From contig JAGAJR010000016.1 in the NCBI GenBank assembly GCA_017626035.1, positions 41,272-105,271 of the forward strand: a stretch of DNA of 64,000 nucleotides, written 5' to 3'. Of the stretch, positions 34,113-37,554 are shown in pieces. The DNA comes from Alphaproteobacteria bacterium (GTDB taxonomy: Bacteria; Pseudomonadota; Alphaproteobacteria; RF32; CAG-239). The translations under genes were made by a program, and so were the position numbers. The notes below the pieces were generated by a model, which made no database searches, was not told the DNA's origin, and worked only from the letters and a program-made list of their open reading frames with translations. How positions within the stretch are numbered: position 1 is the first letter of the stretch; each line of letters opens with the position of its first letter.

Positions 34113-34457
34113 ATGCAATTTTTAAAGAAAAACATTTGGACACTGAGCTGCATGGTACTCATTTTGGCGATGGCTTTTGTAGGCGATGCATCCGCTGCCG
34201 CAGACGGTAACACTTTGATGGATACTGCCAAAACCAAAGCTAAAAGCGTATTTACCTCAGTCAAAACCATCATCTTCATCGTCGGTGGTTTCGGTTTGGT
34301 AGGTTTGGCTTGGGCTGCTATTTTCGGTAAAGTAAACTGGAAATGGTTTGCATCTTTGGCCGTTGGTTTGGCAATCTTGGCTGCTGCTGGTTCTATCGTT
34401 GAATACGCAACAGGTTCAAGAGATGCTGGTCTTGAAACCACATTCGGTGATATCTAG
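34113..34457 (+). CDS. virB2: VirB2/TrbC-family T4SS pilin, paralog 1
   Basis: 114 aa. Signal peptide ending GDASA, then two hydrophobic helices IIFIVGGFGLVGLAWAAIFGKVNWKWFASLAVGLAILAAAGSIVEY. AAGGAG SD. Lies upstream of virB3-virB4. Confidence 0.8.
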   Translation: MQFLKKNIWTLSCMVLILAMAFVGDASAAADGNTLMDTAKTKAKSVFTSVKTIIFIVGGFGLVGLAWAAIFGKVNWKWFASLAVGLAILAAAGSIVEYATGSRDAGLETTFGDI

Positions 34458-34501
34458 TCTTAGACCGGATATTAGAGCATAGTTTGACAAGGGAGGGAAA
34501 A

Positions 34502-34972
34502 ATGGAAAATTTAATTAAAAATAGACCACAATCTCTCCCTTTTGCTCATCTGCTGAAAAAAGCGGTAAGTATTATAGAAGAAAAGGATGTTGAGATGTTG
34601 TGCGTAAAATTAAAGAACTTCCTGATAATGGCTGTTGTGATGTTCGTGGTTTCTTCAGTTTTATTTGCAACAGATTCATTTGCAGCTGAAAACACGGGGT
34701 TGTTTTCTGATTTGATTGCCAAAGGAGGCAGTATTTTCTCCGGTATGCGTGAAATTATTTACGCTGTTGCCGGTTTTGGTGTGGCTGCCGTTGCAATTGG
34801 TGGTTTCTTTGGAAACCTGAACTGGAAATGGCTCGCAGCGATTGCAATCGGTTTGTTTGTAATTGCTACAACCGGTGCAATCATTAATTATATGGTTGGA
34901 GATAAAACCATAACGGATGATATGATAAGAGATACGTTGATCACTGGAAATCAAGATAATTTGAATAAATAA
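34502..34972 (+). CDS. virB2: VirB2/TrbC-family T4SS pilin, paralog 2
   Basis: The core REIIYAVAGFGVAAVAIGGFFGNLNWKWLAAIAIGLFVIATTGAIINY aligns residue for residue with paralog 1. The start is uncertain: ATG 34502 after GGGAGG, or ATG 34595 giving a classical signal peptide. The track start is 34484. Confidence 0.75.
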   Translation: MENLIKNRPQSLPFAHLLKKAVSIIEEKDVEMLCVKLKNFLIMAVVMFVVSSVLFATDSFAAENTGLFSDLIAKGGSIFSGMREIIYAVAGFGVAAVAIGGFFGNLNWKWLAAIAIGLFVIATTGAIINYMVGDKTITDDMIRDTLITGNQDNLNK

Positions 34973-35010
34973 TGATGTTTTGAATGTCTGGAACTGATTG
35001 GGAGGGTGCT

Positions 35011-37554
35011 ATGTTTAATTTTAAGGAAATCAAGAAAGTAATAGCAGCAGCCGTTGTGTTGTCAGCAATTGCTGTTTATGCCTCTCCGTCATTTGCGGAA
35101 GAATTGGATTGTTCTTCTAAAACCGGCTATGAAAAAATGCTGTGTGAAGAGCAAAAGGCATTGAATGAAAAGGCATCAAAAGCGACTGATAAAATTAATG
35201 AGACGCAAGAGAAAGCAAATGCAAAAGCTAATAAAACAAAAGAGAAAGCAGATGCAAAGGCGGGTAAAAAACAGGGTGAAGCAGATGCAAAAAGTAATGC
35301 TTGGTATAGTGATAGTGAAAATCGAAATGTAATAAAAGAAGGAAGTAAAATCAATTCAAAAGAAACCAGCAAAGCGGTTACGGATGCAAACAATCAAAAA
35401 ATAAAAGATGCGAATAAAAAGAAAGAGCAGGCTAGTAAAGATTTGGCTCAAGCATTAAAAGAACATGGAGCCGATAGTGCAGAAGCTAAAGCGGCACAAA
35501 AAGCTATGATGGATGCTAATAGTGATATAGCTAAAGCTCAGGCGGATCAAAAAGCTTATGATGAGGCTGTTAAAGCTCAAAATAAAGCTGACAAAGAGGC
35601 TCAAAAAGCAAAGGAAAAAGCTGAAAAAGCAGAAGCCAAAGCTGAGAAAAAAGCTATAAATGCGGCAGAGAAAGCAGAAAAGAGTGCGAATAAAGATAAA
35701 GCAAAAGCTGATAAAGAAGTAAAAAAATTACAAGAAAAATGTGAAAAAGATCCAACAAAATGTGATATGGATAAATTACAGGCAGCCCTTGCCAAGCAGG
35801 AGGCTGCGACAGCTGCTGCCGCTGCTGCAAAAAAACAGCGTGAAGATATTGACGGTACAACAGCTGCCAGAGAACAAGCTGAAGCTGATAAGGCCGCTGC
35901 ACAAGCTGCAGCTGATGGGGCTTCCGGTGATGATGGTGATATTCTTAATGCTGCTTCTGATGCAGATGCAGCTGGTGTGGCTGAAGCAACTTCTGCTCCG
36001 AAAAGATGTGAAGGGGCTAATGGTATCTTTGAGATTATCGCTTGTAAAGCAATCACAACCTTGGCGGATTTGCGTACTATCTTGTATATCATTGCTGGTT
36101 TTGGCTTGATTGCATTTGCTTGGTCGGCGATTTTTAATAAGATTAGCTGGAAGCATTTTGCCCAGATTTGTATAGCTTTGTTCTTGCTTTCTATGATGGG
36201 TACGTTTATTGGGTACTTTGGATATGATAGCAGCTATCGTGCTTTGAAGTTTGGACAGTATTTGGAAGACGGTCATCAAATAATTGATGGAAGCGGTAAT
36301 TTCATTGATGGTAACGCCAGTGGAGATGTTGATATTCCTGATGCGACAGAAACCGAAAAAGCAGCAAAAAAATGGAGCTTAAGCGATTTGAAGAGCTCAA
36401 TACAATCAGGTATCAGTGCGGTCAAAAAAGCTCATAGTACATATCAAACGGCTAAATCTACGGTTGAAAATGTTGTCAGTAACGCAAAAACAATCGGTAA
36501 TGCAATTAAAAACGGAGAAGGTGGTCTGGATGGTATCTTAAATACAATGACAACTGTTGCCAATGCAACCGGAAACATTATGAATTCCGGACAGCTGTTG
36601 GCCAATAATATTGCAGCTAATGTCGGAGGAATAGCTGAGGATATTACACAGGCAGGATTGAGTGCTGAACAAAGAGAATTAAGAGCTAAAAATCAGAAAC
36701 GATTAGCTGAATTGGAAGATCAGTGTTCAACCGGAAAATGTAATGAATCTCAGAAAAAAGAATTGGCAAGTTTGCAAAAAGCGGCAGAAGAGGGTGCAGC
36801 ATCTAAAAAAACAGGTGTTCAGAAATGGCTTGATAATGATGGTAAAGGTGGCGGTGCAACCATTATGGCTGGAATTAACAAAGTCGGCAATATTACCAAT
36901 AACGTAACTAATTCTGTAACCAAAACGGCTAACGCGGCTCAGAACGGTATGTCAATGGGTAATGATATTGGCGGCGGAGCTCTGGGTAATATCTTAGGTG
37001 CCACTATGGGGGCTGCAACCGGTGTCGGAGAAGGTATTGGCATGATGGGCGATGAAAACTTCAACTTCAAGAGCGAGGCTAAAAAACGTGAAGAAAAAGC
37101 TGCCGCAAAAGAAGCCGCTTATAAGGCCAGTGATAAATATGTAGTTGCTAAAAGTAAAGACGGTAAATCTGAAGTCCGAGGCGATGGCAGTACTAAAACC
37201 ACTCATGATAATGGTACTGTAGTGGTAACATCTAAAGATGGTACCAAAACGGCAACCACTAAGGATGGTTCAACAGTTGTTCAAAACAAGGATGGTTCAA
37301 AAGTCGTAACCAACTCTAATGGTACTGTTACAACTTACGATAAAGATGGTAAAGTTGTTAATGTTGATAAAAGCAACACCAAAGTAACTCATGGTGGTAC
37401 GGCCTCCCTTGCTGATTTGGCGAAGAAATCATCTTCAGGTAGTAGTGCAAACAATAGTAGCACGAAACCTAAAGAAGAGCCGAAGTCTGAAACTAAGGAA
37501 GAGACTAAACCTAAGGAAGAAACTAAGCCGGAAACTAAACCAGAGGCGAAGTAA
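35011..37554 (+). CDS. Giant VirB2-domain fusion protein (about 850 aa)
   Basis: Signal peptide, then a ~330-aa K/A/E/D-rich helical region. The VirB2-like two-helix core RTILYIIAGFGLIAFAWSAIFNKISWKHFAQICIALFLLSMMGTFIGY lies at ~36070-36225. It is followed by a ~440-aa tail with KDG(S/T) repeats (37150-37375) and a K/E/P/T-rich C-terminus. ATG 35011 follows GGGAGG. Confidence 0.7.
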   Translation: MFNFKEIKKVIAAAVVLSAIAVYASPSFAEELDCSSKTGYEKMLCEEQKALNEKASKATDKINETQEKANAKANKTKEKADAKAGKKQGEADAKSNAWYSDSENRNVIKEGSKINSKETSKAVTDANNQKIKDANKKKEQASKDLAQALKEHGADSAEAKAAQKAMMDANSDIAKAQADQKAYDEAVKAQNKADKEAQKAKEKAEKAEAKAEKKAINAAEKAEKSANKDKAKADKEVKKLQEKCEKDPTKCDMDKLQAALAKQEAATAAAAAAKKQREDIDGTTAAREQAEADKAAAQAAADGASGDDGDILNAASDADAAGVAEATSAPKRCEGANGIFEIIACKAITTLADLRTILYIIAGFGLIAFAWSAIFNKISWKHFAQICIALFLLSMMGTFIGYFGYDSSYRALKFGQYLEDGHQIIDGSGNFIDGNASGDVDIPDATETEKAAKKWSLSDLKSSIQSGISAVKKAHSTYQTAKSTVENVVSNAKTIGNAIKNGEGGLDGILNTMTTVANATGNIMNSGQLLANNIAANVGGIAEDITQAGLSAEQRELRAKNQKRLAELEDQCSTGKCNESQKKELASLQKAAEEGAASKKTGVQKWLDNDGKGGGATIMAGINKVGNITNNVTNSVTKTANAAQNGMSMGNDIGGGALGNILGATMGAATGVGEGIGMMGDENFNFKSEAKKREEKAAAKEAAYKASDKYVVAKSKDGKSEVRGDGSTKTTHDNGTVVVTSKDGTKTATTKDGSTVVQNKDGSKVVTNSNGTVTTYDKDGKVVNVDKSNTKVTHGGTASLADLAKKSSSGSSANNSSTKPKEEPKSETKEETKPKEETKPETKPEAK

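Follow-up and report, generated by a model that had tools for sequence, protein, structure and literature searches.

What does a pilin of the VirB2 family do when it is 847 amino acids (aa) long? The question is raised by a 64,000-nucleotide (nt) stretch of DNA from an uncultured gut alphaproteobacterium, referred to here as the window, in which three open reading frames (ORFs) of the plus strand, g1, g2 and g3, occupy positions 34113-37554 directly 5′ of the virB3 and virB4 genes of a type IV secretion system (T4SS). T4SS pili are understood as polymers of very small pilins, with adhesion assigned to the tip protein VirB5 or to other surface factors, and known VirB2-type pilins are about 70-120 aa long when mature. 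We are close to certain that g3, the giant of the three, is a genuine and conserved VirB2-family pilin and stands third in a set of ancient and subfunctionalised paralogs that belongs to a chromosomal VirB-type T4SS. On its role our confidence is evenly divided: g3 may be a minor pilin that co-assembles via its core and displays a variable, adhesin-like superstructure.

VirB2 core and family of the giant pilin

An earlier interpretation of the window, made from its letters without database searches (the sequence-only reading), had proposed that the three genes share a two-helix VirB2/TrbC core, and the three core peptides that it quoted are all present verbatim. Translation starts were placed at ATG 34113 (g1), ATG 34502 (g2) and ATG 35011 (g3) according to ribosome-binding sites and to homolog alignment, in which the Met is invariant; AAGGAG precedes the ATG of g1 and GGGAGGG that of g2, which was chosen over TTG 34484, where the longest ORF of g2 opens. 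With these starts, g1 (34113..34457) encodes 114 aa with a signal peptide at aa 1-28, g2 (34502..34972) encodes 156 aa with a leader of ~61 aa before the core, and g3 (35011..37554) encodes 847 aa. The predicted topology, a signal peptide and two hydrophobic helices, is the same for each of them, with identical hydropathy across the three. The mature sizes of ~86 aa for g1, the presumed major pilin, and ~95 aa for g2 conform to the VirB2 range, whereas that of g3 does not.

Pairwise BLASTP relates all three paralogs, with E-values of 3e-19 for g1-g2, 4e-14 for g1-g3 (40% identity over 57 aa) and 6e-10 for g2-g3. Against the Pfam TrbC/VirB2 family (PF04956, gathering score 27.9 bits), g1 scores 40.5 bits (E = 3.2e-10), above the gathering score, and g2 23.4 bits (E = 7e-5), below it but significant, while g3 alone obtains a non-significant 11.2 bits (E = 0.46). 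The expectation of the sequence-only reading that segment 36070-36225 would match a TrbC profile hence failed in Pfam for the window sequence by itself and held at the level of the family: 49 of 60 orthologous third-paralog cores match Pfam TrbC at E ≤ 0.01 (best 6.8e-9), the 812-aa family member P0206 clears the threshold with 31.7 bits, and the g3-family profile aligns with g1 at an hhalign probability of 99.1% (E = 7.7e-19). The two hydrophobic helices of g3 (aa 356-375 and 383-403) are separated by the short basic loop NKISWKH, and AlphaFold2 (AF2), run with a diverse alignment on the core and the following C-module, models aa 339-404 as a helix-loop-helix hairpin with a predicted local distance difference test (pLDDT) score of 72-78. 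In addition, the gene order pilins-virB3-virB4, typical of VirB2 operons, is found in the window and in its relatives. A tblastn search gave no match to any annotated plasmid pilin, and PHROGs no match for g3. The third gene is a VirB2 homolog with an atypical architecture and not a typical member.

This architecture agrees with the sequence-only reading, which had placed the core of a ~850-aa protein between a K/A/E/D-rich helical region and a ~440-aa tail: aa 30-330 precede helix 1 and ~440 aa follow helix 2, in a protein of 847 aa that starts at ATG 35011 as that reading had it. In other words, ~32 kDa have been inserted in g3 behind the signal peptide and ahead of helix 1, and ~46 kDa have been added after helix 2. 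The family-conserved signal peptide (35011..35097, aa 1-29, hydrophobic at aa 7-25) has a cleavage site, inferred from the sequence, between SPSFA and EE. The N-extension (35098..36000, aa 30-330) consists of long helices rich in Ala (25%), Lys (18%), Glu and Asp, modelled by AF2 with a pLDDT of 75-86 over ~aa 130-330, and carries the invariant Cys pairs 34/45 and 244/251, the latter within KCxKDPxKCD. It is followed by the lead-in and core (36001..36225, aa 331-405), with Cys333/Cys345, helix 1 at 356-375, the loop at 376-382 and helix 2 at 383-403, and by a variable post-core linker (36226..36360, aa 406-450) with a conserved YGxYL motif at its start. Together with Cys572/577 of the C-module, four extramembrane Cys pairs surround the core (34/45, 244/251, 333/345 and 572/577).

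The C-module (36361..37080, aa 451-690) starts with KWSxxDLK, is predicted to form long helical hairpins and contains a Gly-rich, Gly-zipper-like stretch at aa 654-680 with an invariant GxxxGxxxG. Its only Pfam signal is a sub-threshold match to Mce4_CUP1 (19.9 bits, E = 6e-4), its PDB profile search returned chance-level designed helical bundles and coronavirus heptad repeats, and the model of core plus C-module had no fold match at E<1. A VirB5-type bundle was looked for in the C-module without any Pfam, NCBIfam or PDB sequence match or significant fold match, in models of low confidence. Derivation of the C-module from the 262-aa secreted protein encoded after VirB4 was considered because of a weak hidden Markov model (HMM) match and rejected at an hhalign probability of 0.3%. 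The variable tail (37081..37554, aa 691-847) consists of KDG repeats, a Ser-rich stretch and a terminus rich in K, P, E and T. The repeats noticed earlier prove to be eight in number, with a strict 9-residue period KDG(S/T)xxVxx (aa 716-785, nt 37156-37365), and the KPKEE/TKPE-type terminus was also recovered, from aa 818 (nt 37462) onwards. AF2 predicts a nine-strand beta-meander for the KDG repeats (pLDDT 78-87), which weakly matches the single-layer sheet of the CPAP G-box/TCP10 (Foldseek E = 2.5e-3; Pfam Tcp10_C E = 0.006); the full-length g3 model has no Foldseek match other than this one. Homology of the KDG tail to the beta-flower/DUF3659 repeats of VirB10 and the neighbouring 1286-aa protein was dismissed, the BLASTP E-values of 0.03-0.08 not being significant.

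A database search retrieved more than 230 full-length homologs of g3, which measure 757-1139 aa among the 120 matches listed, and those aligned all show the common architecture. A scan with one genome per species delivered 78 loci, and the hosts are nearly all uncultured Alphaproteobacteria from human, ruminant or rabbit gut, including "Proteobacteria bacterium CAG:495". In independent assemblies, some with contigs of 1.85-2.03 Mb, the same order of genes is found: a type IVb pilus cluster, a ~600-aa gene, two small TrbC genes, the large protein, virB3 and virB4. The sequence-only reading had named a chimeric misassembly of 35011-37554 as the observation that would overturn it. Such an artefact, or the joining of a small pilin to its neighbours by faulty gene calling, could draw on the lack of a significant Pfam match for the window g3 core, but it is refuted by a continuous ORF in more than 230 database proteins and at least 78 species-level genomes, by the synteny kept in several independent assemblies and by codon-level purifying selection along the whole length of g3, and can be discounted with virtual certainty.

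The relationship between the three genes was addressed with a small HMM built from the three window cores and run against all ORFs of the loci, which found three tandem VirB2 genes in nearly every genome. A neighbour-joining tree was made from 210 cores, taken from 70 genomes; it groups the 70 cores of each gene position in a single pure clade, and core identity is 27-31% between the paralog classes versus 50-63% within a class. These pure positional clades and the low identity between classes indicate that the triplication predates the radiation of this lineage, hence the recent copying implied by the earlier comparison with TrwL amplification in Bartonella does not apply. For g1, most of the 78 reference loci give a length of 112-116 aa and the most divergent ones up to ~157 aa, and g2 homologs measure 145-156 aa in relatives.

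The third paralog occurs as a plain pilin of ~126-186 aa in rumen and other lineages, with a short Cys-rich C-extension (166-285 aa; L045-L053 and L055), with a C-extension containing a weak C-module (367-433 aa; L037 and L038), with a different C-extension lacking the C-module (689 aa; L041), or extended on both sides (645-1727 aa), the last in 37 loci with complete ORFs and in further ORFs that a contig end truncates. Across all these forms the loop motif AIFNKISWK hardly varies, and the N-extension was inserted precisely at the place where, in the small forms, the signal-peptidase site gives way to helix 1. By their position in the tree, the giant proteins are orthologs of ordinary small pilins. 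Every form with extensions on both sides has the C-module, which is weakly conserved in the 367-433 aa forms with a C-extension alone; judged from this size series, it appears to have arisen before the N-extension. An exhaustive profile search of 1.84 billion representatives returned 706 matches at E ≤ 1e-3. VirB2-domain proteins longer than 500 aa, which the sequence-only reading had recommended looking for, are common among the best 150 of them, all close relatives: 53 have at least 500 aa and 13 at least 1000 aa, and the largest, from a metagenome library, has 2138 aa.

Two further observations concern the plasticity of these pilins. In some lineages the g2-type paralog, recognisable by its GFFGNLNWKW loop, likewise bears an N-extension, of ~190-280 aa, and ends with its core (P0131, 371 aa; P0138, 281 aa; L028, 281 aa; L030, 310 aa), showing that extension is not unique to the third paralog. 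Moreover, "poly-pilins" of 252 aa (P0121), 308 aa (P0123) and 399 aa (P0122), retrieved by the same profile search, contain 2, 3 or 6 complete VirB2 modules in tandem and reach ~12 predicted transmembrane helices in a single polypeptide.

Constraint, recombination and tail inversion

The conservation of g3 differs greatly from one region to the next. Mean pairwise identity among 34 homologs is 79% in the core, 69% in the lead-in, 56% in the C-module, 45% in the N-extension and 33% in the tail (with 27% gaps). The ratio of nonsynonymous to synonymous substitution rates (dN/dS), calculated according to Nei-Gojobori against the closest relatives (L003, L005 and L006), is 0.00-0.013 for the lead-in and core, a constraint that far exceeds the need of a passive membrane anchor. 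It rises to 0.08-0.11 in the C-module, 0.15-0.28 in the tail, 0.25-0.39 in the N-extension (0.47 versus the more distant L002) and 0.44-0.58 in the post-core linker (versus L005 and L006).

Recombination appears to add to this variation. Compared with its homolog at L003:10001-12997, the window g3 is a mosaic in which the synonymous rate (dS) is 0.04-0.28 across the core and C-module and ~0.9-1.0 in the N-extension and tail, indicating recombinational exchange of the extensions between strains. Tails vary in length and module content even between close relatives. For comparison, VirB11 is 88-94% identical across more than 100 members of the clade versus 28-74% for the listed homologs of the giant pilin.

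In sister species, the tail is part of an invertible cassette. An HMM of the C-module found a second, core-less copy in one locus (L001), on the opposite strand and directly 3′ of the giant pilin gene. There, at L001:11359-14325, the two copies form a 996-nt inverted repeat, 100% identical, around a 975-nt spacer. Cassettes with complete arms occur in seven loci (L001, L083 and L085-L089), with arms of 996-1069 nt, 98.3-100% identity and spacers of ~975-986 nt, while an eighth cassette (L084) is cut off by the contig end and a decayed remnant is found in L090 and L091. The spacer carries the 3′ end of the expressed gene, encoding one tail, and the 3′ end of a silent ORF, encoding another. Two of these loci display the switch directly: L088 and L089 are 99.2% identical and collinear through arm 1 and from arm 2 onwards, and the 986-nt spacer between the arms aligns solely in reverse. 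L088 hence encodes a 909-aa protein with tail T1 (T3 being silent) and L089 a 954-aa protein with T3 (T1 being silent), and both orientations are found in natural genomes. L001 and L083 carry a third, Cys-rich type of tail in silent form, and a similar tail is expressed in the full-length homolog P0058. The genes up to 5-10 kb from the cassette loci include no recognised recombinase family, which makes homologous recombination between the long arms the likely and simplest mechanism. Nowhere in the window is there an inverted repeat of at least 80 nt, hence no shufflon-like repeats beside its pilin gene, and its nearest relatives likewise have no cassette gene.

Proposed role and alternatives

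If g3 is a minor pilin, it would be exported by Sec and would reside in the inner membrane as a VirB2-like hairpin, with the NKISWKH loop in the cytoplasm and both disulfide-bonded extensions in the periplasm. The Cys pairs on both sides of the core fit such a topology, in which both extensions would lie in an oxidising compartment outside the cytoplasm. The near-invariant core would be recognised by the T4SS assembly machinery and incorporated beside the small pilins g1 and g2, and both extensions would then project outward from the pilus. In solved T- and N-pili, VirB2-type pilins are arranged in 5-start helices with a rise of ~14 Å and an outer diameter of ~80 Å, and basic loop residues of VirB2, TraM and TraA face the lumen (bioRxiv 10.1101/2022.04.28.489814). 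K377, K381 and H382 of the g3 loop parallel these residues. If the loop lines the lumen, the geometry places the termini at the outer surface, hence the outward projection of both extensions. The same dimensions (bioRxiv 10.1101/2022.04.28.489814) leave ~693 square angstroms of pilus surface per subunit, which is too small for 78 kDa on every subunit unless the extensions are thin radiating rods. It is hence more plausible that g3 occurs in few copies or near the tip than that it forms a homopolymer, and g3 would most likely not be a bulk building block. A variable adhesin or target-recognition superstructure may be formed jointly by the long helices of the N-extension, the helical C-module and the rod-like beta-meander of the tail. 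Recombination would diversify its specificity, as would, in a sister species, a programmed inversion of the segment that encodes the tail.

We infer co-assembly into the pilus, a low-copy or tip location and an adhesin role from this combination: a constrained core, hypervariable and recombining extensions, and an inversion switch in sister species are the signatures expected of a pilin that assembles through its core and bears a surface recognition module. Several points weigh against it. The core of g3 by itself is not recognised by Pfam, no region of g3 has an average dN/dS above 1, and the extensions, those of the largest members included, contain no recognisable adhesin, lectin or Ig-like domain. 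The AF2 models of the C-module are of low confidence (pLDDT ~45-76) and match no known fold. This T4SS might make no pilus at all, the assembly partners of g3 cannot be named because the locus has no recognisable VirB6 or VirB5, and 78 kDa of extensions may be unable to pass the outer-membrane core complex. Finally, neither the window nor its nearest relatives have the cassette, so that the argument from inversion is extended from proteins that are only ~41% identical to g3.

The hairpin could also anchor or dock a non-polymerising g3 to the T4SS, with the extensions serving as a periplasmic scaffold, spacer, gate, or stopper or anchor at the base of the pilus. The bulk of the extensions relative to the pilus surface available per subunit would find a simple explanation, long helices and a K/P/E-rich terminus, which we take to resemble TonB-type spacers, could span the periplasm, VirB9 (with its SPOR domain) and VirB10 (with its beta-flower repeats) of this system carry large periplasm-facing additions as well, and docking to a partner would equally account for the conservation of the core. 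However, hypervariable and recombining tails are unexpected for a periplasmic structural element, as is an invertible cassette of alternative tails found in both states, and in many lineages the third paralog is an ordinary pilin-sized protein. We consider such a role unlikely. Of the roles enumerated by the sequence-only reading, decorating or capping the pilus is thus favoured over periplasmic anchoring, without being proven, in view of the selection on the core, the Cys pairs, the variable tails and the sister-species inversion.

Proteolysis offers another way to reconcile a small pilin with a large gene product, since VirB2 and TrbC are processed at both termini. That VirB2 and RP4 TrbC undergo processing is documented (bioRxiv 10.1101/2022.04.28.489814), and g3 could be a pro-protein that is cut on one or both sides of the core to release a small pilin and soluble periplasmic or secreted fragments. 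The conserved lead-in RC...IACKAxTTLADLR and the post-core Y(F/G)...YGxYL could be processing sites, and the junction of the N-extension coincides exactly with the signal peptidase cut of the small orthologs. On the other hand, no TraF-like or other peptidase was recognised among the window genes scanned, no hydrophobic signal-like segment for signal peptidase I precedes the core, and the conserved Cys 333/345, which straddle the junction, suggest a connection that is stabilised and retained. Cleavage of this kind appears quite improbable.

Should the displayed minor pilin be the right reading, the pilin scaffold would tolerate very large cargo, of hundreds to ~2000 residues, on the termini that face outward in solved pili, and a previously unnoticed device for host or partner recognition would be present in widespread uncultured gut Alphaproteobacteria. 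The tail switch of the sister species, both states of which are present in public assemblies, would be the first programmed variation on a T4SS pilin, as far as the literature found goes. It is tentatively conceivable, with rather less than even confidence, that VirB2 pilins can act as modular carriers of large domains displayed at the surface. In this clade of human and animal gut Alphaproteobacteria, one ancient paralog would then have turned into a pilin-adhesin fusion in the T4SS filament, with a specificity reprogrammed by recombination and in some species by an inversion switch of the C-terminal tail, akin to the shufflon or sap systems discussed below, and the C-module, with its Gly zipper, might even contact or insert into the membrane of the target cell. 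The series from ~130 aa to ~2100 aa would constitute a natural graded set for asking how T4SS pili are nucleated, capped and decorated.

Surrounding locus and comparison with known systems

The three-pilin unit appears to be closed by a terminator-like 18-bp hairpin with a T-run on the plus strand (37592..37630), a pattern match from a consensus scan alone. At 161 nt from g3, a virB3-like gene of the same strand (37716..38015) encodes 99 aa with two transmembrane helices and a weak match to Pfam VirB3 (E = 0.071); it overlaps the start of virB4, and relatives keep a 96-aa counterpart. The virB4 ATPase gene (38005..40437, plus strand, 810 aa) is recognised by TIGR00929 VirB4_CagE (E = 3.8e-108) and by Pfam CagE_TrbE_VirB. 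It is followed at 40464-51138 by genes for four large proteins (808, 262, 629 and 1855 aa) without family match, the sole hydrophobic segment of which is N-terminal and which fill the position expected for virB5, virB6 and virB7. No polytopic VirB6 was found by hydropathy between virB4 and virB8, nor any recognisable VirB6 or VirB5 at the locus. The 808-aa protein was considered as VirB5/TrbJ from an N-terminal motif of the mature form, an idea abandoned with neither Pfam nor plasmid support. No PDB sequence relatives were found for g1, the C-module profile, the 262-aa protein or the 1855-aa protein.

Further downstream lie two copies of VirB8 (51152-51910 and 52224-52958), and at 52961-62951 VirB9 with a C-terminal SPOR domain, a 1286-aa beta-flower/DUF3659/RHS-repeat protein and VirB10; the 1286-aa protein sits between virB9 and virB10, and VirB10 measures 1475 aa, with beta-flower repeats preceding its TrbI domain. 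Hence oversized or decorated parts are not confined to the pilin, VirB9, VirB10 and the 1286-aa neighbour being further cases, and VirB8 is duplicated. VirB11 (62966-63934), 3′ of virB10, is often labelled "Flp pilus assembly ATPase TadA" in public records, a label that its place behind virB10 marks as a likely misannotation. VirD4 is absent from the window, and none occurs within 10 kb downstream of VirB11 in two relatives.

On the other side of the pilin genes, the minus strand carries at 22036-31993 an R64-type type IVb pilus cluster, which encodes TcpQ, a secretin, PilO, an ATPase, a platform protein and three PilS-like pilins; relatives also have such a cluster next to the T4SS, in synteny. 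In two of the scanned loci (L092:11168-13871 and L093:11178-11735), PilS-like genes (four and one, respectively), a sulfatase and an extra ATPase follow virB11 in inverted orientation, which suggests rearrangement and copy-number variation of the type IVb genes. Between this cluster and the pilin genes, a minus-strand gene (32044-33864) encodes a ~600-aa protein of unknown family with a single N-terminal hydrophobic segment, which is kept at this place in all relatives examined (582-620 aa). A minus-strand cluster of Ser/Thr protein kinase, PP2C phosphatase and VWA-domain genes and the gene of a Fic/DOC-domain protein, the latter between the sulfatase and the type IVb pilin genes, are found at 14101-16983 and 20891-21982. 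Housekeeping genes, including those for ribosomal protein S1, RsmE and DnaJ, occupy 464-9098. A plasmid origin was rejected, as 34000-40500 had no megablast match and neither g1 nor the N-terminal part of the 808-aa protein a tblastn match; given the housekeeping context and the lack of a match to known plasmids, the locus is chromosomal.

Targeted literature searches found no description of a VirB2 fusion of this kind, in agreement with the sequence-only reading, which knew of none that had been characterised. The VirB2 and pilin passages of a 2025 review of T4SS nomenclature (PMC12857230) contain no giant VirB2, and passages of the same review cover extended VirB6, the multi-copy VirB2 of Bartonella Trw and six VirB2-like pilins in Patescibacteria. 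The architecture of g3, together with the mechanism of its variation in relatives, is unprecedented for a VirB2 homolog.

With the VirB2/TrbC pilins (VirB2 of A. tumefaciens, TraM of pKM101, TrwL of R388 and TrbC of RP4), a family that polymerises with phospholipid into a 5-start helical pilus, the three genes share the two-helix core, the basic loop, the signal peptide and the position before virB3/virB4. Within this group g1 and g2 are ordinary members, whereas g3, with its 847 aa and with relatives of up to 1727 aa (reference genomes) or 2138 aa (metagenome library), differs by ~300 aa inserted before helix 1 and ~440 aa after helix 2. The Trw system of Bartonella, which serves in adhesion to erythrocytes and has arrays of trwJ/VirB5 beside those of trwL, is similar in having tandem VirB2 genes in a chromosomal alphaproteobacterial T4SS, and no VirD4 was seen near the present locus either. 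For Trw, the passages on VirB2 in PMC12857230 describe multi-copy trwL/VirB2 arrays, the variant pili of which are proposed to serve in host attachment. In contrast, the variation seen here lies in the appended domains of one paralog and not in copy number.

Large polypeptides built around a T4SS component have precedents, such as CagY of H. pylori, a VirB10 with a large repeat region. Likewise, in extended VirB6 of Rickettsiales and others, as presented in part of PMC12857230, a T4SS core domain sits in a much larger polypeptide. Both resemble g3 in embedding a conserved core in a big protein, with the difference that here the expanded component is the pilin itself.

The inversion cassette of the sister species brings to mind the shufflon of R64 and TP114, in which the adhesin-bearing C-terminal segment of PilV, a minor pilin of the type IVb conjugative pilus, is switched by DNA inversion, changing target specificity (PMC9045228). 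The cassette likewise swaps C-terminal tails by inversion, and an R64-type cluster adjoins this T4SS. However, PilV is a type IV pilin and the protein switched here a T4SS VirB2; moreover, the shufflon has several segments, short sfx sites and the recombinase Rci, whereas the cassette has one segment and near-perfect repeats of ~1 kb, and no Rci-like recombinase was found within 5-10 kb of it. With arms of 1 kb, its geometry may also resemble that of the sap (S-layer) locus of Campylobacter fetus, where opposed homologs share a long conserved block and a RecA-dependent inversion changes the expressed variable part. In sap the shared block is 5′ and a promoter-bearing segment inverts between complete genes, while in the cassette the shared block is internal and the exchange, with a partial gene that has no core, is confined to the 3′ tail. 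Finally, FimH of the chaperone-usher pili and GspK at the tip of the type II pseudopilus each join a pilin domain for incorporation to a large domain that restricts the subunit to the tip or to a low copy number and has a binding function. Unrelated to g3 in fold and assembly system, and not its homologs, they would nevertheless seem to share its design logic.

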